Shown: positions 17,671-38,706, numbered from the stretch's first letter. The stretch: 39,587 nt of DNA from Oscillospiraceae bacterium (GCA_029098085.1 JAQXNQ010000167.1:1-39587), one strand, 5' to 3'. Notes: generated from the letters alone by a model not told the origin. Program-made: numbers and translations.

Positions 17671-17675
17671 ACCAT

Positions 17676-23157: not shown

Positions 23158-23185
23158 TTGCTTCTTCGTGTAAAAGTGGTAGAAT
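23158..23185 (+). promoter_or_regulatory. Sigma-A-type promoter candidate for the 10-gene plus-strand operon
   Basis: TTGCTT (23158-23163), then a 16-nt spacer, then an extended -10 TGgTAGAAT (23177-23185). It lies about 45 nt upstream of the GTG start at 23230, within an AT-rich intergenic region. Confidence 0.5.
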
Positions 23186-23229
23186 GGAGGTATAAGAAAT
23201 GCAGTATGTACATGGGAGGAGATGGTACA

Positions 23230-23595
23230 GTGAGCGAAAAAGAGCTTGTCCAGGAAATCATCATCCTGCGCGGCCGACGCGGCTGGACCCAGCAGGAGCT
23301 GGCGAACCGCATCGGTACGACCCAGCGGACGGTGGCTGCCTGGGAATCGGGCAATTCGATTCCCCGCAAGGCCATGCGGGTGCGGATCGCACAGGCATTT
23401 GAGCTGCCGGATGATTATTTTCTTGGGAATCTATTGACAGATACAAAGAGTACAGCTGAAAAGAGTGCGGCAAAAGAACAACAGGATACCGCTCAGCTGC
23501 TGGATAAGTTCAGTTCAATGCTGGACAGCGAGGGCCTGTCGGACGAGAAAAAGACCATGCTGCTGGATTCGGTCAGCGAGATCCTGCAGAAATAA
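23230..23595 (+). CDS. XRE-family helix-turn-helix transcriptional regulator
   Basis: GTG 23230 lies 8 nt after GGAGGAG. The HTH is RGRRGWTQQELANRIGTTQRTVAAWESGNSIPR. It is followed by a short helical C-terminal region. Stop is TAA. Confidence 0.85.
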   Translation: MSEKELVQEIIILRGRRGWTQQELANRIGTTQRTVAAWESGNSIPRKAMRVRIAQAFELPDDYFLGNLLTDTKSTAEKSAAKEQQDTAQLLDKFSSMLDSEGLSDEKKTMLLDSVSEILQK

Positions 23596-23623
23596 CAGGA
23601 AAACAACAAGGAGGAACCTTACC

Positions 23624-25174
23624 ATGGAACCGATTATTGCGCTGGATTTTGGAAACTGTTATTCGTTTCCCTGCTATATTCCCGAGCTGGACATCTCTGT
23701 CAGCCGCCTGGGAGGCAAGCCGGTGGACCTGCTGCCCAGTGATATGCACTACGGCTATCCCAGCGTATTCTTCTATTCCCGGCGGGCAGCCGAGCGCTGC
23801 CGGAAGAATGGACAGCAGCTGCCGCCCTGGTGCGGTGCTGACGCGGTGAAGGCCAAGGCCTCTCCGGAGGGCAACCGGGTGCGCAACCTCAAGCGCCATC
23901 TGGGAGAGCCACTGGTGCTGGACGACTGGAAAGGCAGCTATGACGATGCCATCGTTCAGCTGATCCAGTATCTGATGCGCCGAGCCAACGAGGTGCTGCG
24001 CACCGAGGCGCTGGTCACCACCCACCGGCTGGCGCTGTCCCATCCGGCCACCTACACCCTTTCCCAGCGCATCCATCTGAAAAACCTGGCCGAGCAGGCC
24101 ACACTGGAGGACGGCACCCACATCCAGGTGGTGGGGATGATTGATGAGCCGGCCGCCGCCGCTCTGGATTATCTGGTGGAAAACGGCCGCGGCGACCAGG
24201 ACACCACCGTGCTGGCCTATGATCTGGGAGGCGGCACCTTTGATCTGGCCATTGTGTCGGCCTATCCCCAGGGGCGCACCAGCGCTTCCGGCAATCCCTA
24301 TTATTATCGCGTTGAGAAGACGGGCGGCATCTCCAGTCTGGGCGGCTCGGACTTTGATGAGGTCATGCTGCAGCTGCTGAAGGCCAGGATTCCCGCTTCA
24401 AAGCCGGTAGACGAGGATTCGCTGCGCCGGCTGGCTGAAACGGCCAAACTGGAGCTCAGCCGCGACCCCGACACGGAGCAGGAGATCTACACCAAGTCCG
24501 GCGAGGCACTGTTCGTTACCGTCACCCGGCAGGAATTTGAAAAGGCAGCGCTGCCGCTGGTACAGCGTACGGTGGAGGAAACCCGCCAGATGCTGAAGGA
24601 GTACAGCGGCAAGCAGCCCGAGCTGCTTGTGCTGACCGGCGGCGCCAGCCAGATGCCGATGGTGCAGCGAGAGCTGGAAAAGGCCTTTCCTCAGTTTAAG
24701 GGTCACATCTGCCTCTACCGTCCCAGCAGGGCCATCGCCTACGGCGCCGCCCGCTACAATACGCCTCTGGAAGAGAACTGTGTGCAGCGGTGCGTTCCCC
24801 GCGATATCGGGATCCGCTATTATCATGGCAACAGCGACAAGAAGTATGTCGAGACCTATATCCCGGCCGGTACAGAGCTGCCTTTTGCCAGTGCATACGA
24901 TACTTCCACGACCCGGGGACCGGATGTTCAGTTCTCCTACTTCGCGGTGATGGAAGCCAAAGTCAGCCACCCGGACCAGGAAGCCCCCGACCGTGACTAT
25001 ACCGAGATCCTGTCGGTGACGCTGGATCATGGCAGACCGGTGCCGCAGGGTACCCCGTCCGAGGCCCGGCTGGTGCTGGATCAGAACGGCCTGCTGAGCG
25101 TGGAGGCGCGCGATCCTTCCAAGCCGGATAAGCCCCCGGTCAAAAACAGCTGCACATTGAAGAATCTGAGCTGA
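23624..25174 (+). CDS. Hsp70-family ATPase A (actin-fold NBD plus beta-sandwich SBD-like region, no helical lid)
   Basis: ATG lies 8 nt after GGAGG. Motifs are IALDFGN (phosphate-1), EPAAAALDY, DLGGGTFD (nt 24221-24244), GGSDFDE and LVLTGGASQMPMVQREL (adenosine motif). The C-terminal approximately 130 aa resemble SBD-beta (RDIGIRY...IPAGTELP...LVLDQNGLLSVEA). Confidence 0.85.
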   Translation: MEPIIALDFGNCYSFPCYIPELDISVSRLGGKPVDLLPSDMHYGYPSVFFYSRRAAERCRKNGQQLPPWCGADAVKAKASPEGNRVRNLKRHLGEPLVLDDWKGSYDDAIVQLIQYLMRRANEVLRTEALVTTHRLALSHPATYTLSQRIHLKNLAEQATLEDGTHIQVVGMIDEPAAAALDYLVENGRGDQDTTVLAYDLGGGTFDLAIVSAYPQGRTSASGNPYYYRVEKTGGISSLGGSDFDEVMLQLLKARIPASKPVDEDSLRRLAETAKLELSRDPDTEQEIYTKSGEALFVTVTRQEFEKAALPLVQRTVEETRQMLKEYSGKQPELLVLTGGASQMPMVQRELEKAFPQFKGHICLYRPSRAIAYGAARYNTPLEENCVQRCVPRDIGIRYYHGNSDKKYVETYIPAGTELPFASAYDTSTTRGPDVQFSYFAVMEAKVSHPDQEAPDRDYTEILSVTLDHGRPVPQGTPSEARLVLDQNGLLSVEARDPSKPDKPPVKNSCTLKNLS

Positions 25175-25205
25175 CCACAGGCTGACAGGAAAGGTGGTTT
25201 TCCAA

Positions 25206-26792
25206 ATGTACGATATTTTTGGCTGCGACATCGGCAACGGGTTCGCTTTTGTGTCGCTGATCCCCGGGCCGGACAGCGATGCCCAGCCCATGCTGCCGGT
25301 TTCCCGCGACCTGAACCCCAACGAGGGGATGCCCACTGCCGCCTATGTCACCCCGCCCGGCGCCGACCCCATTCTGGTGTACGATGCCGACAGGGGAACG
25401 GCCGCCCGCAGCATCCGCCGGGATCCGGCCCACGGTGTGCGGGCGGTGAAGACTCACCTGCGCCGGGCCGCCCTGGAGATGGATGGGCTGGACAGCCCGC
25501 TGTCGCCCTACGCCGTCTACGGCGCGGCGGCCCGGGATCTGGTGCGGCTGGGCAACCTGCAGCGGGCTGCGGACGGCCTGCCTCCTATCTACCGGCTGGT
25601 GCTGACCTATCCGGCGGCCTTCTCCAATTACAGCGACGAGCTGGAGATTCTCAACCGGATGCAGGCGGCGGTGGAGGCGGTCAGGCTGGATGACCATCCG
25701 CTGCAGGTGGTCGGCCGTCTGCCCGAGCCGGCAGCGGTGGCCATCGATTATCTGTACTATATGCAGCATCAGCTGCCCGAGGACCAGAGATTGAAAGACG
25801 ACCAGTTTACCGTACTGGTGTTCGATCTGGGCCATGGTACCTTCGACGTGGCCGTTGTCACGGCCCGCAGCAAGGGCGAGCCCTATCAGGTATGGGCCAG
25901 CGATGGGCTGCCCGACGTGGGCGGAAAGGATTTTGACGCCCGCCTGATGGATGAGCTGCTGGAGATGATGCAGCAGGAGGGCTATCAGCTGCGGGATGCG
26001 CAGGAGCGGGAGGAGCTGCTGCGCGAAGCGGTGGCTGCCAAGCATGAGCTGTCCCGTGACGAGGAGGCCGTTGTCCGTCATCAGAATCGCCGGAACGGTT
26101 CGTATATGGAGCTGACCATTACCCGTGCGCGGTTTGAGGAGATCACCCGCGACCTGCTGCTGCAGGTGGTGGAAAAAACCCAGCAGATGCTGCAGGATCA
26201 GCTGGCCCGCGGCCGAACGGTGGACAGCATCGTCCTGTCGGGCGGCGCCAGCCAGATGCCGATGGTGCGCAGGGCACTGGAGGCCTATATCCAGCCGGCC
26301 GTGCCGGTGCAGCCCCCGTTCCGCCCCAGCAGAGCCGTGTCCTTCGGCGCTGCCCGCTATGGGCTGGGGCTGTCTGTACAGAAAAGCGAGGGCAGGAAGA
26401 AGGAAAAAGACCCCACACCCGCTCCGCCCAACCCGGTGGCTCAGCTGTACACCAGGCATTCCTACGGCGTGCTGGTGGAAACGGCCGACGTGATGGAAGG
26501 GAAGGTTCAGATCCTGCTTCCTGCCGAAACGCCGCTGCCCGCCACCGCCACTTTGGAGGAGTACTGGACCGGCAGAGGGCGGATGGACTGCCGCGTCTAC
26601 CGGCCCCGCACTCGCACCAAGGTCAGGGTTCTGGAGCCCGACAAATGTGTGAACCTGAGATGGCTGCACTTTGATCTGCCGCCGGACACCTATCGCCTGA
26701 CCCTTACAGTGGATCCCAACTATAACATCATTGCCAGGCTGGAGGGCAGAAACGGCACCGTCCACACCGCCAGCACGGCCGAAGAAACCTGA
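25206..26792 (+). CDS. Hsp70-family ATPase B (divergent paralog of A, also lidless)
   Basis: ATG 25206 lies about 9 nt after AGGAAAGGTGG (GTG 25194 is an alternative). Motifs are GCDIGNG, EPAAVAIDY, DLGHGTFD (nt 25824-25847), GGKDFDARL and IVLSGGASQMPMVRRAL. The SBD-beta-like C-terminus includes HSYGVLVE...LLPAETPLP...LTLTVDPNYNIIARLEG. Confidence 0.85.
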   Translation: MYDIFGCDIGNGFAFVSLIPGPDSDAQPMLPVSRDLNPNEGMPTAAYVTPPGADPILVYDADRGTAARSIRRDPAHGVRAVKTHLRRAALEMDGLDSPLSPYAVYGAAARDLVRLGNLQRAADGLPPIYRLVLTYPAAFSNYSDELEILNRMQAAVEAVRLDDHPLQVVGRLPEPAAVAIDYLYYMQHQLPEDQRLKDDQFTVLVFDLGHGTFDVAVVTARSKGEPYQVWASDGLPDVGGKDFDARLMDELLEMMQQEGYQLRDAQEREELLREAVAAKHELSRDEEAVVRHQNRRNGSYMELTITRARFEEITRDLLLQVVEKTQQMLQDQLARGRTVDSIVLSGGASQMPMVRRALEAYIQPAVPVQPPFRPSRAVSFGAARYGLGLSVQKSEGRKKEKDPTPAPPNPVAQLYTRHSYGVLVETADVMEGKVQILLPAETPLPATATLEEYWTGRGRMDCRVYRPRTRTKVRVLEPDKCVNLRWLHFDLPPDTYRLTLTVDPNYNIIARLEGRNGTVHTASTAEET

Positions 26793-26812
26793 GAAGGAGG
26801 CAATGTTGCGAT

Positions 26813-28201
26813 ATGTCAAACTATTCCCATGCTTTGGATGCCCACAGCCGTTTCTGGAAGGATCCCAACCGCCGCAATCCCGGCTGCTGCAGAAATTTTT
26901 ACCGCAAGCTGTGGCAGGGCATTCTGCAGGACTATGAAGAATTCGGCCGCTGTGAATACATCGAGCGGCTGCTGAGCAGGTCCATTGTCAGTATCACCCG
27001 AGTGGAATTCAGCATACTGACAGGGATGGCGAAGGAGGAACCGTTCCTTGATCCTGATAGCCTGGACCGCATCCCCCATATCATCTACAGAGATGGATGG
27101 GGTCAGCGCGACGTTTTCTGGGAAGAGGGCAGTCTCGTTCAGGCCGTTAAGGAAACAGACCTGCAGAACGCCGGTATCATCCGCACCCGGCTCCGCGCCC
27201 AGGCGGCCATCCGTGACAGCAGGATCGACATTCCCATCGGTGGAGATACCCCATCCGCACAGGTTCCTCCGGTGCAGAAGAAAGAGGAGCTTCAGACCCA
27301 ACAAATGATCCGGCAGGCCGAGGCCCAGGCTCAGCAGCTGCTGACTGAGGCCCGGCAGGAGGCCGAGCGCATCCGCGCCGAAGCCGAGGCTGAACGGGCA
27401 CGGCTGAATGCTGACCACGCCGCGCTGCTGGCTGAGGCCCGGCAGGAGGCTGACCGCATCCGCTCCGAAGCTGAGGCTGAACGGGTGCAGCTGAATGCTG
27501 ACCGCGCCGCATTGCTGGCCCAGGCCGACAGTCAGGCCAGACAGCAGGCCCGGAATCTCATCACGCAGCATCTGGCCGATTACCAGCGCCAGATGCGCCT
27601 TCAGTGGGATCGTGACACCGCCGAGGCTGAGCAGCAGGATACCCGGGCGACTCAGGAAATCGACAGCGCCCGCAAAGAAATGTGCGGTACCGTCAACGAC
27701 CTGAAGGTCAGTTGGCGCACCGATCTGGAAAAGGCCATTGAGGAGATGCGCGGACTGCAGACCCAGCTGGAAACCCGTCTGCGCGACTGGCAGCGGGCCC
27801 TGTATCCCCGCGAGTTTGAGCCGCTGGCCGATTGCTACGTTCAGCTGTACCGCATCGTCAATCAGGATCGCCTGCTGGCTGACGCATTGACCGCGGAACA
27901 GGGCGGCGGCAGCAACTATCAGCTGCTGGAACAGCTGAGCAGGTCGCTGTCTGTATTCCTGCGCAAATTTGCCAAAGCCATGGGCCGTCTGGGGCTGCAG
28001 GTGTATGTGCCTGCTGTGGGCGAGCCTTACGATGACGTGCTGCAGGCACCGGACGGCGATGAGCCTGACGATGCGTTTGACAGGACCGTGGCGGAATGTC
28101 TGGTGCCCGGTGTGGTGTACCAGCTGGAAGGCAAACAGGAAGAGGGCGATCCGATCATTCGCGCCGTTGTGCGCCTTGCGCCCGGATCCGGGGAGGAGTA
28201 A
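26813..28201 (+). CDS. Coiled-coil protein with a GrpE-like C-terminal domain (putative nucleotide-exchange factor for the Hsp70 pair)
   Basis: The central part is an E/A/R/Q-rich coiled coil. The C-terminus reads ..FLRKFAKAMGRLGLQVYVPAVGEPYDDVLQAP....VAECLVPGVVYQ....IIRAVVRLA. This parallels the E. coli GrpE pattern (..VVRKFGVEVI...PLDPNVHQAI....V..V.QKGY.LNGR.IRAAMV.V), recalled from memory. Confidence 0.6.
   Translation: MSNYSHALDAHSRFWKDPNRRNPGCCRNFYRKLWQGILQDYEEFGRCEYIERLLSRSIVSITRVEFSILTGMAKEEPFLDPDSLDRIPHIIYRDGWGQRDVFWEEGSLVQAVKETDLQNAGIIRTRLRAQAAIRDSRIDIPIGGDTPSAQVPPVQKKEELQTQQMIRQAEAQAQQLLTEARQEAERIRAEAEAERARLNADHAALLAEARQEADRIRSEAEAERVQLNADRAALLAQADSQARQQARNLITQHLADYQRQMRLQWDRDTAEAEQQDTRATQEIDSARKEMCGTVNDLKVSWRTDLEKAIEEMRGLQTQLETRLRDWQRALYPREFEPLADCYVQLYRIVNQDRLLADALTAEQGGGSNYQLLEQLSRSLSVFLRKFAKAMGRLGLQVYVPAVGEPYDDVLQAPDGDEPDDAFDRTVAECLVPGVVYQLEGKQEEGDPIIRAVVRLAPGSGEE
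27347..27520 (+). repeat. Tandem 87-nt (29-aa) duplication inside the GrpE-like coiled coil
   Basis: Nt 27347-27433 encode EARQEAERIRAEAEAERARLNADHAALLA. Nt 27434-27520 encode EARQEADRIRSEAEAERVQLNADRAALLA. Confidence 0.9.
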
Positions 28202-28204
28202 GTT

Positions 28205-29161
28205 ATGGCATATTCCGGTTATCAGGCTGCGGCCCTGTACGACTTTACCCATCATATGCGGCAGGACAACCTGTCCTTCCCGGTTACCGAGCTGGTGATC
28301 GATGCCGACCGGTGTGCCCTGGGAATCTGCCGCTGTGACGAGGGCGGCGGCATCGCTTTGCTGGAGCAGGCGGAATTGTCCCAGCCCGCGCCGCTGGATC
28401 AGCTCTGGCTGGAGCAGATTGCTGCCGGCTGCGGCGTTTCCGCCCGGGAGGCGGCCGGCCTGCCGGATGAGGCGCAGGCCCAGACCCGTTTGTGGAACTA
28501 CTACTGCGCCGGACGGCGCTCCGACGCTCCCGCCTTTTCGCTGCCGGACGGCCGCACCCTTTGCTGCAGCCAGCTGGATGCAGCTTTTGCTCCGGTGCAG
28601 GCACTGCTGGATCAGCTGTTGGAACAGGGGCTGCAGCTGCTGGAGCGGCTGCACATCCCCGAAGAGCAGCTGCGCATCCTGACTGTTGGCCGGATGGCCG
28701 ACTGCGCGCCTGTCCGGCTGACACTGCGCGGGCAGCTGTGCTTTGACCCCTTCCTGCCGGATGACCGCTTCGTGGCTCTGCGGGCAGACGAGGATCCCGG
28801 CCGCATCGTGGAGGAGGGAATGCGGCTGCACCAGCAGACCCAGATGATAGGGATCGAGCTGGATCTGCTCTGCACCGACGCTTCCGGTGCAGAGGAGGTT
28901 CTCTGTCTGGCCCGGAGCCAGCAGCTGGCCTCCGCCCTGTCCGATCCCCATTACTGTCCGCCGGTTTTTGTGTCGGCGTCCGAGCCGCTGCGCTTCCGTA
29001 CGGGCGGCCGGGTATGGGAGCAGCCGCTGCCCTACGCAATCGGCCCGCTGGACGGTGACCTGGTGGAGGCAGCCTGCGTTGTGCGGGCCGGCCGGCCGCT
29101 GATTCTGCTGCGCCGAACCCTCGCCCCCACCCGGGTTTATGAGGTGCAACCGCAACTGTGA
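28205..29161 (+). CDS. Hypothetical protein (possibly a degenerate actin-fold/ASKHA-like domain; weak)
   Basis: ATG lies 6 nt after GGAGGAG and 3 nt after the upstream TAA. LVIDADRCALGICRCDEGGG is reminiscent of a phosphate-1 hairpin. RILTVGRMADCAPVRLTL is reminiscent of the Hsp70 adenosine motif. No confident family assignment. Confidence 0.6.
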   Translation: MAYSGYQAAALYDFTHHMRQDNLSFPVTELVIDADRCALGICRCDEGGGIALLEQAELSQPAPLDQLWLEQIAAGCGVSAREAAGLPDEAQAQTRLWNYYCAGRRSDAPAFSLPDGRTLCCSQLDAAFAPVQALLDQLLEQGLQLLERLHIPEEQLRILTVGRMADCAPVRLTLRGQLCFDPFLPDDRFVALRADEDPGRIVEEGMRLHQQTQMIGIELDLLCTDASGAEEVLCLARSQQLASALSDPHYCPPVFVSASEPLRFRTGGRVWEQPLPYAIGPLDGDLVEAACVVRAGRPLILLRRTLAPTRVYEVQPQL

Positions 29162-29175
29162 AGGGAGAAACCAAC

Positions 29176-30390
29176 ATGAATAACCGTCAAAAAAAGCTCC
29201 TGAGCCAGCAGCTTCTGGCTCAGGCCAAGGCGCTGGAGCAGCAGGAGGGCCCCCAGCTGGCTGTTTCGGTGACCGCCGCCTGCAGCGCGCTCCTGAAGGC
29301 GGCGAGTGCTGACGTTGAAACGATGGATCCGGCGTCTTTTGAGAATCTCTACGCCAGTTTTTCCCGTCTTGCCCAGCAGACCGAGGCGTTCTTTGAGGGC
29401 GCTCAGGTCCGGCTGCAGGCCGGGGTGCAGACTCCCGGGCAGGAGCTGTCTGACAAACGGCAGCAGGTCGAACAGCTGCGCGCCCGGTTGGAGGCGGCTG
29501 ACCAGGCCGTTCAGGAGCTGGAACACCGACTGGCTGATGACCGGGCCCGGCTGGAAGAGGCTCAGAAACGGATGACCGACGCAGAGGAAGCCCACAGCGC
29601 CCTGTGCAGGCTGCTTGACGACTGCTCGGACGAAAAGATCGCAGCCCGGCTGGCCGGGAACGAACAGCTCAAAGAGCGCTTTGCCGAGGCCAACCTGCGT
29701 ATGCACACCCTGACTAACGAACATGACCGGCTGCTCCGGCAGCTCCATGAGATCGAAGCCGACATGGAAAAGATACCCCAGCAAAACCGCGAGCTGGTGG
29801 AGCGCTGCGGCGAACAGGAAAAGCTTCTGGAGCGCCTGCGCAATGCTTTTGAAATCTACAGTCCTGAAAAGCAGGCTGAACTCCAGAAGGAGATTGACAC
29901 GCTGAGCGCGTCGGTGGAGGAAAACCAGCAGGCGGCGCAGCTGCTGAAGAGCCGTCTGGATGATCTGCAGGCTCAGCACACGGAATATGATGCCGCCCGC
30001 CAGACCCTCAGCACCAACCTTCTGGATTTGCTGCAGCGCTCGATGGGCGATTTGCAGACCGCGCTGGATGACCACGAAGAAAAGCTGAGCACCATCCGCA
30101 CCCAGGCCGAGACCCTGACCGGCCGGCTTGCCGCCTGTCTGGAGACCCGCCGCCGCTGCAGCGACTGGCTGGATGCCGACATCACGCCGCTGGAGGCGAT
30201 GATCCGGGCGGTGGACCGGCCCGAGGCCGCCGAGCTGCGCCGGACGCTGGATCCCGGCAGCATCCATCAGGTTCAGCAGTTGTACACAGAGATCGAGCAG
30301 CGGCTGCAGCAGCTGGACGACATCCTGAGAAAATGCACCGATGCTGTGCGTTTGGATCAGGGTGCGCTGGATAAGCTGGCTCGCCGCTGA
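29176..30390 (+). CDS. Long coiled-coil protein (hypothetical)
   Basis: ATG 29176 lies 8 nt after GGGAGA. The approximately 400-aa product is Q/E/L/R/A-rich with heptad character throughout (for example QVEQLRARLEAADQAVQELEHRLADDRARLEEAQKRM). Stop is TGA. Confidence 0.7.
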   Translation: MNNRQKKLLSQQLLAQAKALEQQEGPQLAVSVTAACSALLKAASADVETMDPASFENLYASFSRLAQQTEAFFEGAQVRLQAGVQTPGQELSDKRQQVEQLRARLEAADQAVQELEHRLADDRARLEEAQKRMTDAEEAHSALCRLLDDCSDEKIAARLAGNEQLKERFAEANLRMHTLTNEHDRLLRQLHEIEADMEKIPQQNRELVERCGEQEKLLERLRNAFEIYSPEKQAELQKEIDTLSASVEENQQAAQLLKSRLDDLQAQHTEYDAARQTLSTNLLDLLQRSMGDLQTALDDHEEKLSTIRTQAETLTGRLAACLETRRRCSDWLDADITPLEAMIRAVDRPEAAELRRTLDPGSIHQVQQLYTEIEQRLQQLDDILRKCTDAVRLDQGALDKLARR

Positions 30391-31011: not shown

Positions 31012-32543
31012 GTGGAAGAAAAACAACCTATACCAGCATCAGCGTGGATGAACTGATCCGCCTTCGCCGTCAGGCCTGCCAGGCCTCCAGCCTGTCCCAG
31101 TGTAATCAGGCGCTGCAGCAGCTCGCCGAGCGCAGCGAACAGCTGATGCGCCAGCAGCAGAGCCGCATCGACAGCCTGAACTCCACCATCAACGGCCTCA
31201 ACCGCACCATAGCCAGTCAGGACGCCGCCGCCAGCCGTGAACGCCAGCAGCTGCGCACCCAGCTTCAGACTACGATTCAAAACACCAATCAGGCGCTTCA
31301 GCAGATGGCTGCCCGCAGCCAGCAGCAGATGCAGGAGCTGAGCCAGCAGTTCCGGCAGGATCTGGCCGCCCATCGGACCGACACCGCCCGCGCCATCGAG
31401 GAGAGCAACCGGCGGATGGATCAGGCTCTCCAGTCGGCTGTTTCCTCGCTGGAAAGCCAGATCGGCACCGTCAGCAGCCGGATGGACCGGATGGAACAGG
31501 ATCTGGCCGACAGCGCCCGCCGGGTGGGCATCCTGTTCAATTCCAACGCTTCGCTGCTGGAGCTGGCCCGCGAATACGCCGATGTGGCCCGCACCATCGC
31601 CGATGATACCGCCCGCAATTTCCGCACCGAACTGCTGCTGCCCGGACGGCTGGAGCAGGTGCAGGAGCTGCTGCGCACGGCCGATCAGGACATCCGCGAC
31701 GCCGACGGAAAATTCCCCACCAACGCCCCGGTGGCCCGTCAGAGCGCCCGCACCGCCGCCACCGCCGCCATGCAGCTCCATGAGGATATGGTGCGTGCCG
31801 AACAGGCCTGGCAGGCCCGCTATCAGGCTGCCGTTCAGGCCCTGAACGCCGCCGAGGCTCAGATCGAGGCCTGTCGCCGTATCCGGTTCCCCGGTGAAAC
31901 CGCTGAGATCGACGTGGATCGCTGGAGCAACGGCGATCTGTCTGCGCTCAGCACCCGTCAGGCCGCTCTGCGGGGCCAGCTGAACAATGCCGACGGTCTG
32001 TCTGTCGAGGCGCTGGACGGCATCCGACAGGCCGGCGCCCAGCTGGCCAGCGAGGTGCTGGAAACCTCTGAATTTGCTGCCATCGCCTTTGGCGCCAGCC
32101 AGGACCGGGCCGATGTGGCACAGGATGTGGCCGACTCCATGCGGGAGTCTCTGGGTCTGATGATCGTGGATCACGGCTTCCAGAGCGGCGATCAGCGCGC
32201 CGCCCACCGCATCCACCTGAAAAATCCCCACACCGGCTTTGAAATGGTTGTTACCCAGTATCCCGAGACCGGCCCCGACGGCGTGGTGGGCAACCGGCTG
32301 GAATCCGACATTCTGGATTACGGCACCAACAACGAGCAGGAGGGCGACCGGATCGCCTACCAGGCACTGAGCGCTCTGTCCGGTCTGGGGCTGTGCCAGC
32401 AGACGGTGCAGACGGTGCCCGGCTATGAAAACTGTCCCTCCGACCGCCGCCAGCAGACCGATATGGCTGCCTGGCGCCATCAAGAGGCCGAGCTGCCCTG
32501 CCCGGTACACACCCAGCCCGCTGGTCAGACTGCCGTCAACTGA
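31008..32543 (+). CDS. Coiled-coil protein with a globular C-terminal domain (hypothetical)
   Basis: ATG lies 9 nt after AAAGGAG and overlaps the upstream TGA. The N-terminal approximately 290 aa are a Q/R/A/L-rich coiled coil. The C-terminal approximately 200 aa are non-repetitive (..MIVDHGFQSGDQRAAHRIHLKNPHTGFEMVVTQYPE..). Confidence 0.7.
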   Translation: MSGRKTTYTSISVDELIRLRRQACQASSLSQCNQALQQLAERSEQLMRQQQSRIDSLNSTINGLNRTIASQDAAASRERQQLRTQLQTTIQNTNQALQQMAARSQQQMQELSQQFRQDLAAHRTDTARAIEESNRRMDQALQSAVSSLESQIGTVSSRMDRMEQDLADSARRVGILFNSNASLLELAREYADVARTIADDTARNFRTELLLPGRLEQVQELLRTADQDIRDADGKFPTNAPVARQSARTAATAAMQLHEDMVRAEQAWQARYQAAVQALNAAEAQIEACRRIRFPGETAEIDVDRWSNGDLSALSTRQAALRGQLNNADGLSVEALDGIRQAGAQLASEVLETSEFAAIAFGASQDRADVAQDVADSMRESLGLMIVDHGFQSGDQRAAHRIHLKNPHTGFEMVVTQYPETGPDGVVGNRLESDILDYGTNNEQEGDRIAYQALSALSGLGLCQQTVQTVPGYENCPSDRRQQTDMAAWRHQEAELPCPVHTQPAGQTAVN

Positions 32544-32573
32544 CCTTTCACATTCTACCAATAAGGTGATCGC

Positions 32574-35500
32574 ATGCTTAGCAGAAATAATTCTTATTTT
32601 GATCCGCAGCTGTGCATCGACGGGCACTACATCATCACCGGGCGGACAAACGACCGCTTCTGCAGTGACACCCTGGAACTCACTGACATCCTGCCGGTTC
32701 TTCACCATTATCTGCTGTACGAGCAGGGATTCGACGCGGTGTTTTTTCTGGATAACGAGAATATGCTGTTCTGTCTGGATCGGCATTCCTTCGATGTACT
32801 GACCCTGCCGCCGGACGCCCCGGAGGCAGGTGCGGTACGGACCGGTGCGGTGAGTGCCGATGGCCCTTTGGGACGGCGCCGCCGCCGGAATGCCGCGCCG
32901 GAGGCTGCTGCCGGTCGGCAGCAGGACGCCGCCCGTCCGCTGAATATGGGCCGTATGTCGCTGCAGAGCGCCTGGCAGCAGGTGTCGGGTGTGATGAAGC
33001 ATACCGAAGCCCGCTGCGCGCTGGTGATCTCAAACGCCAATATGATGAAGGGCGGCGAGCAGCTGCTACTGGAACTGTCCTCCTTTTACAGCACCAACCA
33101 CAGCGTTGTGCTCTATCTGTTCCGCGAAACCACCCTGAACAACGTGGCTGAGTGGACCACCTTCGCCCGCAATGTGCTGCTGCCCCGCATCACCACCACC
33201 GACCCCATTGCCAACCGGGTGATTTCGCTGTCCTCGCCCAACAGCCGGGAGGTGCGCAATCTCCTGAATCGGCTGCGGTTTGACCCTGGCACCCCGGTGC
33301 CGGTGCAGGCCGGCGACATCCCGGAGCTTGGCAGCATTCTGGCTGCCAGCTGTGCGCGCAATAACTGGGGACTGGTGGATCTGCTCGGCCGGCTGTACGG
33401 TTACGCGTCTGCCCATCCCGACCGGACGCTGACGCTGGATAACTGGCGGGAATACACCGAGGAGACCTCCTACCGCTCGGCTATGGAAGAGCTGGAAGCG
33501 ATGGTGGGACAGGAAAAGGTCAAGCAGCAGCTGCGCGCCATGCGGGCCGACCAGGAGTGCCGGGGCGAGATGCGCATCGAGCCCCTGTCCTCCAGCCGCT
33601 TTGCCCCTCTGCCGGTGTACAACCGGCGGCTGGGCCACAGTCTGAATGTGCGCCTGAAGGGCAGCGCCGGCACCGGCAAGACCACCATCGCCCAGGTTAT
33701 CGGCCGGATCTATTATGATCTGGGGCTCCTGTCCCGGTCGTATGTGCGGGAGTGCAGCGCCGCCGACCTGGTGTCGGGTTATGTCAACCACACGGCTGAG
33801 CAGGTCCGCCAGCTGGTGCAGGAGGCCATGGGCGGCGTGCTGTTCATCGATGAAGCCTATGCACTGATGGACGGCCAGCACGGCCAGGAGGCCATCAACC
33901 AGCTCGTGCACGATATGTCCGCTTACGAAGGGCAGTTCGCCGTGATTCTGGCGGGCTATTCCCACCAGATCGACCAGCTGATGCGCACCAACGAAGGACT
34001 GTCCAGCCGGTTTCCCAACGAGTATGTGCTGGAGGACTACACTCCTGCTGAGATGCAGGCCATCTTTCGCCGGATGGCCGCCCGCGAGCTGCCGCCCGTC
34101 ACCTTCAGCCCGTCGCTGGAAGCGCGGATGGACGACTTTTTTGAGACCTGGGTGAGCGGCAGGGGGCCGAACTGGGGCAATGCCCGTGAATGCCAGAACC
34201 TGCTTCCCGAGATGAAAAAGCTGTGCAGCCTCCGCGAGGCGGCCCTGCAGGTGCGCGGCCGCAGCTACTGCCTTACGGAAGCGGATGTTCCCGAACGGCT
34301 GCGCCACTGTCTGGAGCCCCGCAGCAACGGCCCCAGTGAGACCATGGCCCGGATCGATGCAATGATCGGACTTGGCGGCATCAAGCGGTTTTTGCGCCAT
34401 CTCGTCCAGCGCATCCTGATGGGCGAACGGGAACAGGGCCCCGGCAACTTCATCTTCTTCGGCCCTCCGGGCACCGGCAAGACCACCGTGGCCCGCCAGA
34501 TGGGCGAGCTGCTGGGGCTGCTGAGGGTACTGCCCCGGCGCCATGTGGTCGAGTGCCGCGCTGCCGATCTGCTGAACGGCTCGGTGCAGCTCAGCGAAGC
34601 GGTGGAGTCTGCCCGCGGCGGCGTGTTCTTTCTGGACGAAGCCCATCAGCTGGCTGAAACAGACCATGGTCAGCAGATCATCCGGGCGCTGGTGCCGCTG
34701 GTGGAGGATCCGGATATCCGGGCGGACACCTGCTTCATCTGCGCGGGCTATGCGGACAGAATGCGTCATTTCCTGTCGGCAGACGCCGGCATGAACCGGC
34801 GTTTCCCGCTGCAGAACCGCATCCGGTTTTACGACTATACCGCCGAAGAGCTGGTGCAGATTCTGGAAAAGATGGCCCGTGACCGCGGCCAGGAGCCCGA
34901 TGAGGAATACCTGCAGCGGTCGCTGGCGGCGCTGGACGCGTATATGCCGCGCCGGCCTGCCGATTTCGGCAACGCCGGATTTATCCGGGACACCTTCCTG
35001 CCCGGATCCATCGATGCCCGTACCCGTCGGCTGAATATCCAGATAACCGGTTCACCCGACGCCATCGCCACCGACGAGCAGCTGGCATCGCTGACCGAAC
35101 AGGACCGCAGGCGGCTCACCGCCTTCGACCTGCCCGAAGACTTTGCCCGGATGGCCGGCCCGGTGGGACGCCGCCCGTCCGCCCGCCTGTCTGCCTGGCA
35201 GCGGGTGCAGGCTCTGCTGGGCAAGGACGAGATCATCAGCTTTGCCCGCGCCCGGGCGTTCGGCAGCGGTGAACGGCAGTTTTTTGACGCACAGACTCAG
35301 GGAGGCCTGCACTATGCCATCACCGGTCCGTCCGGCTGCGGCCGTCACACGGCGGTTCGGGCACTGGCCGCCCTGTGGAGGGAGGCCGGCCTGCTGGAGC
35401 GCGATGACGTGATCTTTGCCGGCAACGGCGACCTGGTGGCCGGCTATGTGGGCCAGACCGCCGGCAAGACGCAGCGGGTGATTGAGCAGGCGGTTGGCGG

Positions 35501-37646
35501 CACGCTGGTCATCGAGTATCCAAGCAGCCTGCTGCCCAAAAACAACGAGAACTCCTTTGGCCCCGAGGCGCTGGGCACCATTGCATCCGCCATGGCCGCT
35601 CACTTTGGGGACACCAGCTTCGTGCTGCTGGATACCCCCGAAGGTATGGAAGCTCTGTTCAAGGCCCAGCCCGCCCTGCGCGGTCAGATGGCCCGTATCT
35701 TTGAGCTGGAGGACCTGACCCCGGTTCAGATGGAATCGATTTTCAGGGAAAAGACCCGGGACAGCATGATGTTTGAGGACAGCGTGGAGGAGCTGTTGAG
35801 TGACTTTTTCCTGAACTGGGTCAGCAATCGCGGCGGACTCGGCGATGCCAGCCGCAGCTGGGCCAATGGCATGGAAGTGGATCGTCTGATTGAAGACCTG
35901 AAGATAAACTGGAAAAACTCCGGCGGCCAGGCCGATGAGCAGACGGTCACCGAAAACGGACGCAGCTACCAGCTTGTCCGCCGGCGCATTCTGGCTGCTC
36001 ACTTCCCCCGGAAGGTGCAGCGGTATCTCAAGCGCACTTCGGTGGTATCCGAAAGCGCCCTGCAGGAGTTGCAGGCACTGCCCGGCCTGCACCGGGTGAA
36101 ACGCTCCGTCCAGGGCATCCAGCGGCGCATCCGGCGGCTGGGCCGCACCAACAGCAAGCCGGGCTGTTATCTCTACCTGGGCAATCCCGGCGTTGGCAAG
36201 ACCACCGTGGCCCGTTTGATGGGCGGTGTGCTGCACGCCGCCGGCGTCCTGAGCCAGGGACACGTCATCGAGCGAACCGCCCGTCAGATCGGCGATCAGC
36301 TGAATGAGTTCGACTCCATCCTCAAACTGGCCCGCGGCGGTATCCTGTTTATTGATGAGGCTCACCAGCTGGCTGAGCCGCAGAATTACTGGGGCCGGGA
36401 AATTATCAAGCGCCTGCTGACCGTGCTGGAGGACGATGCGGTGACCAACGCCACCTGTATCATCCTGGCCGGCTATCCCCAGTCCATGATACGTCTGCTG
36501 GAGCAGGATGAAGGTCTGGCCAGCCGGTTCGGCTCCGAAGACAACATCATTGTGTTCGATGACTACACCGCTGACGAACTGATGCAGGTGATGGAGCATA
36601 TGGCGGCCCGGGCCGATCGCATTCCCAGCATCGGCGCGGTTCGTCCGCTGGTCACCAATGAAGAGTTCCGCCGGCATACCCGTGCAGTGTTCGAAGCCGT
36701 GCTGGCCCGCGGCGACCACGATTTCGGAAACGCCCGCTTTGTGCGCACCTATCTGCACGATGCCCTGAACGCTCAGCTGGAGCGGATGGATCGCGAGTAT
36801 GGCGAGATCGACGATCCGCCCGCCGATGTGGCCGATCTGCTGACCGAACAGGACATCCCGGAGCGGTACCGCCATCTGGCGGAGGAATCCCGGCGCCAGT
36901 ATGCGGCTCCGGATCCCGCCCGGATGGACACCCGGCGCGGTGCGGAGGTGGACGAGCTGAGCTACGACGCGGCCTGCGAACAGCTGTCCCGGAGCGTCGT
37001 GCTGCTGGAGATTACACGGGGCGGCCGGAAGACCGGTACGGCCACCGGCACCATTGTCACCTCCGATGGTCTGGTGCTCACCTGCGCCCATGTGATTCGG
37101 GGAGCGGAGCGCATTCGCGCCCGGGTATACTGTCCCGGCGCACCGGGCGGCGACACCCGCTGGTTTGACAGCCGGCTGCTGGAACCGGTGTGCAGCGACT
37201 GTGACATGGCCATGCTGCAGTTGGATGGCAATCATTTTGTGCCCGCGCCGCTGCGCCCGCTGGATCAGCCGCCGGCGGCCGGCGAGCGAACCCTGATTCT
37301 GGGCTACCCGCTGGGCGGCATGCTGGCCGGCGGTGACAGAGACGCTCTGCGCATCAGCAATTTCTCCGGCCGCGTGGCCTCCTGCCAGCTGGTAGGCTCG
37401 GTGGAGCGATGCTATGTGGACAGCACCGGCCTCCACGGCAACTCCGGCAGCCCGGTCTTTTCGATGACGGACCGGCGGGTGATCGGCGTTTTTTCCGGCT
37501 CGATCATCCCCCGTCAGGAAGGCTCGCTGGATGAGTTGAACTATTTCCATCCGCTGCACTATTTCTGGGAGCGGTTTGCCGCCCAGCAGCCGTCTGTACA
37601 ACCCGGTGCGGCAGAAGAGGAGGAGAACAATGGCAGTGAAAACTGA
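32574..37646 (+). CDS. 1690-aa multi-AAA+ (SpoVK/CbbX-type) ATPase fused to a C-terminal trypsin-like serine protease
   Basis: Intact modules: GSAGTGKT/VLFIDEA (Walker A nt 33660..), GPPGTGKT/VFFLDEA (nt 34461..) and GNPGVGKT/ILFIDEA (nt 36180..). One degenerate module has GPSGCGRH/TLVIEYP (nt 35325..). The CbbX-type signature DLV(S/A)GYV(N/G)(H/Q)TA is present. The protease triad is TCAH(1506)V, D(1544)MAMLQL and GNS(1624)GSP (Ser codon at nt 37443). Confidence 0.85.
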   Translation: MLSRNNSYFDPQLCIDGHYIITGRTNDRFCSDTLELTDILPVLHHYLLYEQGFDAVFFLDNENMLFCLDRHSFDVLTLPPDAPEAGAVRTGAVSADGPLGRRRRRNAAPEAAAGRQQDAARPLNMGRMSLQSAWQQVSGVMKHTEARCALVISNANMMKGGEQLLLELSSFYSTNHSVVLYLFRETTLNNVAEWTTFARNVLLPRITTTDPIANRVISLSSPNSREVRNLLNRLRFDPGTPVPVQAGDIPELGSILAASCARNNWGLVDLLGRLYGYASAHPDRTLTLDNWREYTEETSYRSAMEELEAMVGQEKVKQQLRAMRADQECRGEMRIEPLSSSRFAPLPVYNRRLGHSLNVRLKGSAGTGKTTIAQVIGRIYYDLGLLSRSYVRECSAADLVSGYVNHTAEQVRQLVQEAMGGVLFIDEAYALMDGQHGQEAINQLVHDMSAYEGQFAVILAGYSHQIDQLMRTNEGLSSRFPNEYVLEDYTPAEMQAIFRRMAARELPPVTFSPSLEARMDDFFETWVSGRGPNWGNARECQNLLPEMKKLCSLREAALQVRGRSYCLTEADVPERLRHCLEPRSNGPSETMARIDAMIGLGGIKRFLRHLVQRILMGEREQGPGNFIFFGPPGTGKTTVARQMGELLGLLRVLPRRHVVECRAADLLNGSVQLSEAVESARGGVFFLDEAHQLAETDHGQQIIRALVPLVEDPDIRADTCFICAGYADRMRHFLSADAGMNRRFPLQNRIRFYDYTAEELVQILEKMARDRGQEPDEEYLQRSLAALDAYMPRRPADFGNAGFIRDTFLPGSIDARTRRLNIQITGSPDAIATDEQLASLTEQDRRRLTAFDLPEDFARMAGPVGRRPSARLSAWQRVQALLGKDEIISFARARAFGSGERQFFDAQTQGGLHYAITGPSGCGRHTAVRALAALWREAGLLERDDVIFAGNGDLVAGYVGQTAGKTQRVIEQAVGGTLVIEYPSSLLPKNNENSFGPEALGTIASAMAAHFGDTSFVLLDTPEGMEALFKAQPALRGQMARIFELEDLTPVQMESIFREKTRDSMMFEDSVEELLSDFFLNWVSNRGGLGDASRSWANGMEVDRLIEDLKINWKNSGGQADEQTVTENGRSYQLVRRRILAAHFPRKVQRYLKRTSVVSESALQELQALPGLHRVKRSVQGIQRRIRRLGRTNSKPGCYLYLGNPGVGKTTVARLMGGVLHAAGVLSQGHVIERTARQIGDQLNEFDSILKLARGGILFIDEAHQLAEPQNYWGREIIKRLLTVLEDDAVTNATCIILAGYPQSMIRLLEQDEGLASRFGSEDNIIVFDDYTADELMQVMEHMAARADRIPSIGAVRPLVTNEEFRRHTRAVFEAVLARGDHDFGNARFVRTYLHDALNAQLERMDREYGEIDDPPADVADLLTEQDIPERYRHLAEESRRQYAAPDPARMDTRRGAEVDELSYDAACEQLSRSVVLLEITRGGRKTGTATGTIVTSDGLVLTCAHVIRGAERIRARVYCPGAPGGDTRWFDSRLLEPVCSDCDMAMLQLDGNHFVPAPLRPLDQPPAAGERTLILGYPLGGMLAGGDRDALRISNFSGRVASCQLVGSVERCYVDSTGLHGNSGSPVFSMTDRRVIGVFSGSIIPRQEGSLDELNYFHPLHYFWERFAAQQPSVQPGAAEEEENNGSEN

Positions 37647-38706
37647 TCTGTGTCCGGTGTGCGGCCGCCCTGCGGCCATGGAAGCATCCGACGTATGGGG
37701 CTGCCCGGAATGCGGGTTCGCTTATTCGCAGGTCAAGCGGTTTGCAGGCAGCGGCGCGCTGGCAGTATGGCGGCAGGCCGCTGCCAGGGAAAAACGCCGT
37801 CTTGCGGAACGGGTGATCGGGCTGTGTGCCCGGCAGCCGGTATTTGGCTTCAGCGGCGGGTCTTTGACCTTCACCTCGCCCCAGGATGGCCGGCTGTATC
37901 TGGTGGAAGCCGGCGGGGTTCGTCCCCAACGGCCTGAAGTGCGCCAGTACAGTGCGCCCGAAAATGCGCTGCGAAATAAGGTGTTTCTGCTCTCGGACGG
38001 CCGTCTGGAGGCAGAAGGGGACGACGAATACGGCCAGTGCAGAACCGGGAATCTCCATGACATCCGCCGGGTGCTGGCCACACCACGCTGCACCTACGCC
38101 GTCACCAATGAGGGGAATGTGCAGTGCTGCGGCGAGCCTTTTTCGCCCGCCGTGGCCGGTTGGAAAAACGTACAGGAACTGGCCGCCGGCGCCTACCATC
38201 TGGTGGGCCTGACCGGTGACGGGAGGGTGCTGGCGGCGGGCGATATGCTGAACAGCGCTGTCGCTGCCGAGATTGCAGGCTGGCGGGAGATCACCGCCAT
38301 TGCCTGTGCCGGAGATGCCACCATCGGTCTGTGCAGGGATGGCACCGTCCGTTTTGCGGGGCGCCCCGGCGATCCGCGCGAAGCGGTGCGCGACTGGAGC
38401 GGGATCGCGGCCATTGCCATCGAGAGCGTCTACGCGGCAGGTCTGACGGCTGACGGCCGGGTACTGCTGGCAGGCAGAAATTTCAATGATGACCTGGATC
38501 TGGGCCGCAGAGAGGCCGCCGGCTGGACTGACGTGGCGGCCATCACCTGCAGCCGTTCCGGTATTGCCGCGCTGGGCGTGGATGGCTCTGTCCGGCTGGC
38601 CGGCAATATCCGGGACATCGGCAGACTGAAAAGCGCATGGGACTCTTTTTCGGATACGGTGCGCAGCCAGCTGCTGCAGGCCGTTATGATCTTGCCTTTT
38701 GTTTGA
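37630..38706 (+). CDS. Zinc-ribbon plus RCC1-like repeat (beta-propeller) protein
   Basis: ATG 37630 follows GGAGGAG and overlaps the last 17 nt of the giant gene. The N-terminus has CPVCG..x13..CPECG. It then carries about 6 repeats of the type AAGAYHLVGLTGDGRVLAAG, CAGDATIGLCRDGTVRFAG, ESVYAAGLTADGRVLLAG and CSRSGIAALGVDGSVRLAG, plus GDDEYGQC. Confidence 0.75.
   Translation: MAVKTDLCPVCGRPAAMEASDVWGCPECGFAYSQVKRFAGSGALAVWRQAAAREKRRLAERVIGLCARQPVFGFSGGSLTFTSPQDGRLYLVEAGGVRPQRPEVRQYSAPENALRNKVFLLSDGRLEAEGDDEYGQCRTGNLHDIRRVLATPRCTYAVTNEGNVQCCGEPFSPAVAGWKNVQELAAGAYHLVGLTGDGRVLAAGDMLNSAVAAEIAGWREITAIACAGDATIGLCRDGTVRFAGRPGDPREAVRDWSGIAAIAIESVYAAGLTADGRVLLAGRNFNDDLDLGRREAAGWTDVAAITCSRSGIAALGVDGSVRLAGNIRDIGRLKSAWDSFSDTVRSQLLQAVMILPFV

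Follow-up and report, generated by a model that had tools for sequence, protein, structure and literature searches.

The closest published idea to the locus described here is the HSP70 and GrpE theme of the GAP1-N2 GTPase-centric conflict systems, which were predicted in Firmicutes and Actinobacteria by Kaur, Burroughs, Iyer & Aravind (2020, eLife; PMC7159879) and which sometimes carry a second Hsp70 without a substrate-binding domain (SBD) and, in some cases, trypsin effectors. What defines them is the presence of TRAFAC GTPases with zinc ribbons, of GAP1 and of FNIII-repeat/DnaJ proteins; the main text of that study contains no SpoVK/CbbX AAA+ giant and uses 'radical SAM' (radical S-adenosylmethionine) once, for the vWA-MoxR (FtsH ternary) system (PMC7159879). 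Two further described systems are MADS, an experimentally validated eight-gene methylation-associated defence system with an essential P-loop ATPase, mad8 (bioRxiv 10.1101/2023.03.30.534895), and CoCoNuT, whose extensions mention SpoVK and Hsp70-like domains in McrBC contexts. We have analysed a 39,587-nt stretch of DNA from an Oscillospiraceae bacterium (GCA_029098085.1, JAQXNQ010000167.1:1-39587), called the window throughout, which encodes a system with Hsp70-like proteins, a putative GrpE-like factor, a radical-SAM enzyme (rSAM) and a giant AAA+/trypsin protein. An Hsp70, here with a putative exchange factor, is common to this system and to the GAP1-N2 theme, whereas GTPase, GAP1 and FN3 domains were found in none of its 15 proteins.

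We suggest that the locus encodes a horizontally mobile, not yet described conflict system, directed against phages or mobile genetic elements and based on chaperones and an unfoldase, and we put the probability of this reading at roughly 0.55. It rests on the following observations: the locus is a compositionally foreign island with variable insertion sites, its modules are shuffled between lineages, it has protease outputs and an XRE switch, one of its ATPases is related to a defence ATPase, its core pair recurs inside a CRISPR operon, and the gene for the giant has been disrupted three times. The original prediction, made from the window alone, had already proposed an undescribed conflict or defence system; synteny, patchy distribution, the foreign island, the lack of a match to a named system in PADLOC and the CRISPR linkage now speak for it. 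The data show the gene content, its conservation and mobility, the linkage to an immune locus and the chemistry of the domains; from them we infer the defence function itself, the trigger, the targets and the substrate of the radical-SAM enzyme.

Ten open reading frames (ORFs) on one strand, g1 to g10 (Table 1), occupy positions 23158-38706. With homologue-supported starts, the gaps between them measure 3-31 nt (about 30-31 nt between g2 and g3), and two overlaps were found exactly where first claimed, one of the ATGA type at 31008-31011 and one of 17 nt at 37630-37646; the predicted run of tightly joined same-strand genes was borne out. The order of the last nine genes (HspA-HspB-g4-g5-g6-rSAM-g8-giant-RCC1) has no exception among full-type loci, and the complete order XRE-Hsp70-Hsp70-GrpE-like-g5-coiled coil-rSAM-g8-giant-RCC1 is found in 15 of 21 lineages at 22-82% protein identity, where lineages are g8 sequences clustered at 85% identity (21 distinct) and the synteny table was drawn from 42 loci (L numbers below). 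Shared by 15 of these 21 lineages, the order is far from chance, and the gene-neighbourhood comparison proposed with the original prediction does find the operon syntenic across many genomes. The boundaries first drawn, 23158 and 38706, were too narrow, since the conserved unit reaches upstream to about 18761. The best explanation of the arrangement is a unit of two divergent operons spanning about 18.7-38.7 kb, controlled by an XRE regulator.

The g8 family is modest and patchy: an exhaustive phmmer search of 1.84 billion representatives at 50% identity returned 232 clusters at E<=1e-3, of which 97 remain at 1e-10 and 48 at 1e-30. At E<=1e-10 the radical-SAM enzyme retrieved 4,215 proteins; identity is 54-82% among the best 120, and every genomic context looked up for its best matches holds the same operon. 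Extreme rarity, as indicated by g5 used as a marker (12 clusters in a word-indexed search, and one locus in a GTDB motif scan of low sensitivity that gave 1 match among 185,579 species genomes), was rejected as a sensitivity artefact because the radical-SAM and g8 queries found many more. The named hosts are mostly Clostridia and include Candidatus Fusicatenibacter intestinigallinarum, Flavonifractor (GCA_002159175.1) and Candidatus Onthomonas, together with gut metagenome contigs.

The GC content steps from ~0.50 to ~0.65 at ~18.2 kb and drops at ~38.6 kb, which delimits an island of ~63% (range 0.60-0.69) between flanks of ~54% (about 0.48-0.56). These edges fit the limits of the ten-gene operon and of the divergent module upstream of it, so that the compositional island comprises both. 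One gene of the divergent module encodes a soluble VirD4/TraG/TraD-like ATPase, for which the best specific PADLOC match is mad8 (4.7e-16); no other mad genes accompany it, and no named system was matched in this search. The TraG-like gene lies divergently upstream in the window and in L004, L017, L028, L031 and L042, upstream on the same strand in L016, and downstream of the RCC1 gene in L014/15, whereas in L011-13 a DUF87/HerA ATPase and a different HExxH protein replace this arrangement. In all, an FtsK/HerA-superfamily ATPase stands beside the operon in 9 of ~13 lineages with enough flank (again with g8 clustered at 85%), and the divergent-module genes beside the operon are conserved at 32-68% identity. 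A DUF8224 protein that follows u3 and u2 in L009 was considered as a third ATPase type and rejected, there being no P-loop in the 446 residues seen.

This module bears on a rival explanation, in which the locus would belong to an integrative mobile element as a selfish or accessory module, serving its maintenance, addiction or exclusion or, through the VirD4-like ATPase, the handling of protein or DNA during transfer; the Hsp70/AAA+ set would unfold substrates, and host immunity would not be involved. In 8 lineages a VirD4/TraG-type ATPase is indeed linked, and one further lineage has a DUF87/HerA ATPase, but at least three informative lineages with a complete operon lack the module. The ATPase of the window has no transmembrane (TM) segment in a hydropathy scan, that is, no membrane anchor, and its score against NCBIfam TraD as a coupling protein is 85.9 bits where the cut-off is 521. 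An insertion sequence (IS) fragment follows the GC island, a tRNA-3'-like string was noticed by eye and an integrase gene lies near the L021 variant; on the window's own island, however, we found no relaxase, VirB4, other type IV secretion (T4SS) gene or integrase, no att-like direct repeats of >=11 nt occur between its two edges, and the family is found on no sequenced plasmid. We regard this explanation as improbable.

The evolutionary core of the system is the NrdG/PflA-like rSAM g7 together with g8, with SpoVK-type AAA+ and Hsp70-like partners. The small radical-SAM enzyme had been called an activase with C29, C33 and C36 as its cluster ligands, and the Fer4_12 match and an alignment to PFL-AE confirm the radical-SAM domain: the three cysteines form CxxxCxxC, and G17-P-G-R-R aligns to the DGPGIR of PFL-AE (PDB, 7e-6). 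The GxGxR loop of PFL-AE contacts the peptide substrate. The enzyme scores 102.3 bits against NrdG (TIGR02491), under the cut-off of 126.1, and 51.9 bits against PFLA, under 231.75. It is the most conserved gene across full-type lineages (Table 1), and neither the window nor any of the 44 related loci encodes an NrdD, PFL or Gly_radical domain. The AlphaFold2 (AF2) model of g8 (pLDDT 81) has a long helical bundle followed by a small alpha/beta domain and no significant Foldseek match in PDB or BFVD; a match to GrpE (4ani, 2.7e-4) is confined to the coiled coil, and we have therefore treated it as compositional. An N-terminal MSG is present in 119 of 178 members of the g8 family, of which a 13-lineage alignment was also made. 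The rSAM and g8 genes are directly adjacent everywhere except in L021/22, where two small genes intervene; the 4-kb contigs L023/24 carry g8 without a visible rSAM gene.

In Candidatus Hydrogenedens (GCA_012522755.1), a g8-like gene (MSGRK N-terminus, 23% identity) and a Fer4_12 rSAM gene (36% identity to g7) stand, with no other gene of the system, inside a type III CRISPR-Cas operon (L019:9920-11909, and L020 in a second assembly). A CARF-type cas gene lies upstream of the pair (TIGR02221, 106 bits, cut-off 76) and a type III RAMP gene 14 nt downstream (TIGR03986, 247 bits, cut-off 161), and the operon continues with Cas10/Cmr2-, Csx10- and Csx7-like genes. We found no description of an rSAM/g8-type CRISPR ancillary pair in the literature. 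There are no cas genes in the window or in the examined flanks of the other 19 lineages. As a separate observation, L040 encodes a fusion of reverse transcriptase (RT) and Cas1 (L040:19292-20416; RVT_1 1.9e-32 and a Cas1 N-terminus) 1.5 kb downstream of a full-type RCC1 gene; in its sisters L028 and L037 the flanks differ.

The obligate pairing of g7 and g8, and the protein-directed nature of small activases of glycyl-radical enzymes (GREs), lead us to infer that g7 acts on its neighbour. The same facts could be read as a new radical-enzyme or protein-modification pathway, in which g8 or another operon protein would be a new kind of enzyme, radical-bearing or rSAM-modified, and the chaperones, AAA+ modules and protease assemble, repair or turn over the enzyme. 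That g7 and g8 always occur together, with g7 both the best conserved gene and of GRE-activase type, would suit such a pathway, as would the CbbX likeness of the giant (362 bits), since CbbX-family AAA+ proteins are known enzyme remodellers (Rubisco and CbbX, or GRE repair by GrcA, offer the analogy). Oxygen-labile radical chemistry would also suit anaerobic hosts, and we take the named gut Clostridia and the Candidatus Hydrogenedens metagenome-assembled genome (MAG) to be anaerobes. Yet g8 has no barrel, no fold resembling an active site and no PDB match, no metabolic genes are linked to the operon, and a metabolic role hardly accounts for the CRISPR embedding, the protease, the XRE regulator and the ATPase modules. 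We consider a metabolic pathway very improbable.

Table 1. The conserved unit in the window. Positions count from the first nucleotide of the window; starts of g1-g10 are supported by homologues; identity is to the window protein across full-type lineages.
Feature	Position	Strand	Description	Evidence	Identity (%)
u0	18050-18721	-	223 aa, N-terminal zinc ribbon, two C-terminal TM helices; membership uncertain	Hydropathy	
u1	18761-20017	-	418 aa, after the TraG-like ATPase gene	Conserved in L004, L016, L017	
TraG-like ATPase	20032-21378	-	Soluble VirD4/TraG/TraD-like (FtsK-HerA superfamily) P-loop ATPase	TrwB_AAD_bind 3e-38, TraG-D_C 1.5e-16	
u2	21392-22717	-	441 aa, HExxH (HEGTHGIQ) zincin-like domain, G/D/S-rich repetitive tail	Sequence	
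u3	22725-23027	-	100-aa helical protein, first gene of divergent module	Positional homologues	
Control region	23028-23205		Divergent intergenic region	Promoter-like site and direct repeat	
g1	23206-23595	+	XRE-family helix-turn-helix (HTH) regulator, 129 aa	ATG after GGAGG ribosome-binding site; start from homologues	
g2	23624-25174	+	Hsp70-like ATPase with an NBD (nucleotide-binding domain) and SBD-beta but no helical lid, 516 aa	HSP70 4e-32	35-67
g3	25206-26792	+	Second Hsp70-like ATPase, NBD recognisable, C-terminal ~140 aa divergent	HSP70 1.2e-31, residues 172-388	
g4	26813-28201	+	N-terminal domain, long coiled coil, C-terminal GrpE-like domain	Marginal GrpE profile matches	22-38
g5	28205-29161	+	Degenerate Hsp70-fold protein, reduced NBD and beta-sandwich	AF2 and Foldseek	27-50
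g6	29176-30390	+	Coiled-coil protein, about 405 aa	Position kept in all full loci	
g7	30415-31011	+	Small NrdG/PflA-like radical-SAM enzyme, 198 aa	Fer4_12 1.1e-31	45-82
g8	31008-32543	+	Helical bundle and small C-terminal alpha/beta domain	N-terminal MSG(R/K)K	22-61
g9	32574-37646	+	1690-aa AAA+/trypsin giant	AAA 1.2e-42, AAA_lid_6 7.9e-16, Trypsin_2 2.5e-18	27-71
g10	37630-38706	+	Zinc ribbon (CPVCG...CPECG) and RCC1-type beta-propeller	RCC1_2 9e-11, WD40_RLD 5.7e-9	
Hairpin	38811-38834	+	Terminator-like, after g10; GC island ends here	Second hairpin at 38761-38781	

Most of the domains that the original prediction had named are recovered with Pfam, NCBIfam and PDB profiles, but its counts of Hsp70 proteins and AAA+ modules, like its extent, were incomplete. 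The two Hsp70-like ATPases it reported, g2 and g3, are about 30% identical to each other, and both retain the DxG, EPxAA, DLGxGTFD and GGxxxxP motifs; in g2 these read DLGGGTFD, EPAAAA and GGASQMPMV. The HSP70 match of g2 spans profile positions 117-488 of 599, and its alignment with DnaK (PDB 2v7y, 1.9e-24) runs to residue 461. A third member was overlooked: g5 has no match at the sequence level in Pfam or PDB and lacks the ATP-binding motifs, yet its AF2 model (pLDDT 92) matches full-length DnaK and BiP in Foldseek (E 5e-9 to 1e-7), which gives three Hsp70-fold paralogues per operon. Some lineages have an additional Hsp70-A paralogue (L004:4004-5170, L014:1279-4580); in L004 a truncated 388-aa Hsp70-A precedes the full copy, making four Hsp70-fold genes in the operon.

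The GrpE-like factor of the original prediction is marginally supported. M. tuberculosis GrpE is the top PDB match for a profile of the g4 C-terminus, on the motif LGL.V.F..GE.FD.V.H, though at an E of only 0.0037; the whole-protein profile against GrpE gives 0.012, hhalign to E. coli GrpE gives 0.11 with the register correct, and Pfam GrpE was not detected in g4, which is the least conserved gene of the operon. We suggest that g4 is a putative nucleotide-exchange factor and scaffold. The second coiled-coil protein, g6, has matches of SMC/Rad50/JetC coiled-coil type only (Pfam, PADLOC and NCBIfam).

The giant g9 matches spore_V_K (455.8 bits over four stretches), EccA (412) and CbbX (362) in NCBIfam, and three AAA stretches in Pfam. 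The four residues singled out for mutagenesis hold up: the Walker A lysines K369, K636 and K1209 are, with DEA(Y/H), invariant over six lineages, and S1624, within GNSGSP, completes a protease triad with H1506 and D1544. The three intact AAA+ modules are thus as claimed; two inactive ones, one of them read from motifs, bring the total to five. AAA3 is degenerate (GxGRHT, without DE, the Walker lysine lost), and residues 1-300 are conserved and contain hhhhD, a sensor-like N and 'PN..E..NLL' motifs, so that the N-domain looks like a degenerate AAA-like module. A PDB profile search with this N-domain gave no usable match, and its match to FtbL (E 0.18) was judged chance because FtbL is a monocin tail protein. 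From the N-domain motifs and the state of AAA3, the order in the giant is inactive-active-active-inactive-active-protease. The RCC1-repeat protein g10 was likewise predicted correctly (RCC1_2, Table 1), and it is the final gene in every full locus. Taken together, the conserved catalytic motifs of the Hsp70s, the three AAA+ modules, the protease and the radical-SAM enzyme argue for intact chemistry.

In the Onthomonas-like lineage the gene for the giant is broken in different ways: it is frameshifted near aa 990 in L001:14421-19491 and L025:11597-16622, carries a TAG at aa 781 in L003:10928-16006 and is frameshifted near aa 312-343 in L026:8049-12978. Three independent disruptions in one lineage are as expected for a costly effector; the breaks reflect either recurrent loss of such an effector or errors of MAG assembly. 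The composition of the operon also suggests another rival, a private proteostasis or developmental machine of spore-forming Clostridia (a spore-maturation or stress disaggregase/protease) with no role in conflict. The giant passes the NCBIfam SpoVK cut-off when its four stretches are summed (455.8 against 422.95), but its gene is recurrently disrupted, and no sporulation genes are adjacent. Hsp70, GrpE, AAA+ and protease together follow the logic of bi-chaperone or AAA-protease quality control, whereas control of the locus is by an XRE protein with no hrcA- or sigma-type signal. The taxon-named hosts are mainly Clostridia, yet the core pair is found in the type III CRISPR operon of another phylum, Hydrogenedentota, which is not known to form spores. 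Finally, the locus is stable between housekeeping flanks in some lineages, but the family as a whole is patchy (232 clusters; 1 of 185,579 in the low-sensitivity motif scan), the island is compositionally foreign, the insertion sites vary and the modules are shuffled. On balance, a dedicated proteostasis machine seems to us unlikely.

The control signals are in keeping with the original prediction, which had placed a single promoter-like element and an XRE regulator at the head of the operon. A match to HTH_3 (Pfam, 6.2e-11) confirms g1 as the regulator; its RstR-like match in NCBIfam (1.6e-11) is under the cut-off. The promoter-like site TTCACA-16-GATAAT at 23115-23142 is the strongest of four such sites in 22.5-39.6 kb and the only one upstream of g1. 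A direct repeat of consensus TTCAyAmAACATC (TTCACACAACATC at 23115-23127 and TTCATAAAACATC at 23145-23157, spacing 30 nt) brackets its -35 and -10 elements and may be the operator of the XRE protein. The terminator said to close the operon corresponds to the hairpin in Table 1. Of the debris described beyond it, the IS part stands, as a C-terminal fragment of a Mutator transposase at 38879-39178 on the minus strand, but the tRNA part is not confirmed: ARAGORN and Rfam found no tRNA near the operon end, even when the last 288 nt were scanned at E<=1. Beyond the Mutator fragment, a string similar to the T-arm and 3' end of a tRNA (GCGCGTTCGAATCGCGC...GCCA, 39461-39510, minus strand) was noted by eye, and no repeat matching it is present at the left edge of the island. 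The reported absence of housekeeping partners was borne out, with no dnaJ, hrcA, nrdD or glycyl-radical enzyme gene among the larger ORFs of the window.

Among the remaining genes of the divergent module, u1 stands beside the TraG-like gene in L004 (51% identity), L016 (33%) and L017 (37%) and has no match in Pfam, NCBIfam or PADLOC. The residues H119, T122 and H123 of u2 are invariant over seven lineages, and u2 has no Pfam or PDB match; u2 and u3 are kept together in L004, L009, L014, L028, L031 and L042, and an HExxH protein stands with the DUF87 ATPase in L011. Homologues of u3 (99-100 aa) occupy the same position in those six loci and in L017. The left edge of the high-GC island is where u0 lies, and a weak homologue (23% identity, E 4.5e-10) in L016 has the u1-like gene on one side and the first Hsp70 gene on the other. 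The low-GC left flank (1-18200) encodes a transglutaminase-like protein, LemA and DUF2207, DUF4234 and DUF3137 surface or envelope proteins, as well as a 1431-aa choline-binding/LRR/DUF6273 surface protein (69-4364); DUF6273 is also found in the Hsp70-like fusions or neighbours of L021:3496-12309.

Reduced and rearranged forms occur among the more distant g8 relatives (21-27% identity). L017 has a single Hsp70 and L023 is reduced to g8 and an Hsp70; L021/22, from an Oscillospiraceae MAG, combines Hsp70-DUF6273 fusions with an 833-aa single-AAA-trypsin protein near an integrase and an HSDR_N gene, and in L043/44 rSAM-g8 is followed by an AAA giant of 1990 aa and this by an Hsp70-like gene. In L011:12184-20570 (also in L012, L013, L035 and L041) the giant stops after the last AAA+ module, without a trypsin domain. 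The L011 lineage has no XRE gene, a DUF87/HerA ATPase in place of the TraG-like one and, after the RCC1 gene, a triad of a sigma-like gene (307 aa), an anti-sigma-like one (HxxxCxxC) and one for a CHAT protease of 1074 aa; it is very widespread, and in the assembly collection its rSAM cluster, P0128, is indexed in 485 blocks. Such modular shuffling (changing ATPase positions, the DUF87 swap, the loss of trypsin, the reduced variants) would be typical of conflict systems. The neighbours of the operon vary as well, from ribosomal-protein genes and OTCase to an integrase with HSDR_N and the RT-Cas1 fusion. Among the Fusicatenibacter-like loci, both flanks are shared by L007, L008, L029 and L030 and the downstream flank by L036, and the TraG-like module is not visible; a zinc-ribbon protein and a radical-SAM/SPASM enzyme lie ahead of the operon (L007:564-2320, also L029 and L030), with PHP and YbjN-like genes behind.

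Several observations weigh against a conflict system. Among its proteins there is no classical toxic effector, such as a nuclease, an NADase or a pore. In PADLOC-DB v2 its proteins have matches at the level of HTH, coiled coil and P-loop only and to no named system, and no g8 copies were found on sequenced phages, plasmids or IMG/VR contigs. Many operon flanks are ordinary housekeeping genes, and the Fusicatenibacter-like locus, which has the same flanks in many samples, for that reason behaves like a stable chromosomal trait. The CRISPR embedding is one species in two assemblies, and the RT-Cas1 adjacency is one locus. The GrpE assignment of g4 is marginal. As to radical chemistry, Gly3 of g8 is missing in L017, its PG[YF]E glycine (near residue 472) is missing in 4 of 13 lineages, and neither the canonical glycyl-radical motif RVxG[FWY] nor a recognisable glycyl-radical domain was found.

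If the conflict-system reading is nevertheless correct, we suggest the following course of events. The enzyme g7 would install a protein radical or a radical-derived modification on g8, for which Gly3 of MSG(R/K)K and the PG[YF]E loop are the candidate sites, and this would arm or switch the system. The ATPase-competent g2 and g3, together with the degenerate g5, would be cycled by the dedicated GrpE-like g4, with no J-protein; tethered by the coiled coils of g4, g6 and g8, the Hsp70 trio may recognise a non-self or aberrant protein or assembly. It would then recruit or activate g9, the single-chain five-module SpoVK-type AAA+ unfoldase, whose trypsin-like protease could degrade proteins of the invader or of the host and so halt infection. 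The ZnR-RCC1 propeller of g10 is placed as an adaptor, and the soluble VirD4/HerA-like ATPase with u1, u2 and u3 may form an accessory sensing or effector module. A more far-reaching version, which we regard as doubtful, has g7 and g8 as a radical immune switch restricted to anaerobes that gates either type III CRISPR, as in Hydrogenedens, or the Hsp70-recognition and AAA+-protease machine of the gut Clostridia, which would detect invader proteins and destroy them.

Were this an immune system, recognition of polypeptides by Hsp70 and a GrpE-type factor would be a principle not yet seen in prokaryotic defence, the action of a GRE-activase-type radical-SAM enzyme on a dedicated protein partner would be a second, and the executor would be a single-chain five-module AAA+ protease. 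Should the g7-g8 switch prove true, no earlier immune system would rest on chaperone-style protein recognition and protein-radical chemistry. The system is common in abundant Clostridia of the human and animal gut (Fusicatenibacter, Flavonifractor, Onthomonas and other Oscillospiraceae and Lachnospiraceae), whose phage defences are poorly sampled by screens based on E. coli or Bacillus, and aerobic screens would miss oxygen-labile systems. That the core pair occurs inside a type III CRISPR operon points to CRISPR ancillary modules of a new class. In this way, two unusual biochemistries can be tested directly as mechanisms of immunity in anaerobic bacteria of the gut; if the function is not defence, the locus would still define a protein machine both large and conserved, with g8 as a new fold family and a GRE-type activase that is an orphan.

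As far as we could test, and within an incomplete coverage of the literature that limits the claim of novelty, the system appears to lie outside every named kind with which we compared it; no description of this gene combination was found in a search conducted mostly outside subscription journals. MADS is similarly a large operon with an HTH first gene and a P-loop ATPase, and mad8 is the closest relative of the TraG-like ATPase in the defence database; the window system, however, has no methyltransferase, kinase or other mad gene (its mad1 match is 0.0065), and MADS has no Hsp70, rSAM or AAA-protease parts. Type VII secretion resembles it in that a CbbX/SpoVK-clade AAA+ protein (EccA, 412 bits), an FtsK/HerA ATPase and a serine protease occur together, but membership was rejected, as there is no EccB/C/D/E, EssA/B/C or WXG100 and the protease has a trypsin rather than a subtilisin fold (MycP); apart from u0, the 14 proteins contain no TM helices. 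A place among T4SS coupling proteins was likewise rejected, since the ATPase has no anchor and the window encodes neither a relaxase nor VirB4 nor any other T4SS domain, as was one in CoCoNuT/McrBC, whose defining components are missing. IetAS (the AAA+ protein IetA and the subtilase IetS) and the Lon-like BrxL share the logic of coupling an AAA+ NTPase to a serine protease; IetA models match the giant at its P-loops (3.6e-10), in Walker A stretches of 20-70 residues only, and IetAS has no counterpart of nine or more partner genes, of the five SpoVK-type modules or of the trypsin fold. The NrdG and PflA activases have the size, CxxxCxxC and GxGxR loop of g7, whose constant partner, unlike theirs, is the helical protein g8 and not NrdD or PFL. 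The DnaK-DnaJ-GrpE/ClpB machinery has in common with the window system the Hsp70 NBD and SBD-beta, coiled coils, an AAA+ unfoldase and, putatively, a GrpE-like factor. No DnaJ or HrcA domain occurs in the window ORFs or in the syntenic loci, and g2, which ends after its SBD-beta, scores 102 bits against the DnaK equivalog TIGR02350, where the cut-off is 822.55. Unlike DnaK/ClpB, moreover, this accessory system has moved horizontally and is controlled by an XRE protein, and its AAA+ modules are of the SpoVK/CbbX/EccA clade, not Clp. Their AAA core with AAA_lid_6 and Walker A and B is present in g9; SpoVK and CbbX are single modules of ~300 aa and EccA joins a TPR domain to one, whereas g9 carries four recognisable modules, a degenerate N-domain and a trypsin-like protease.

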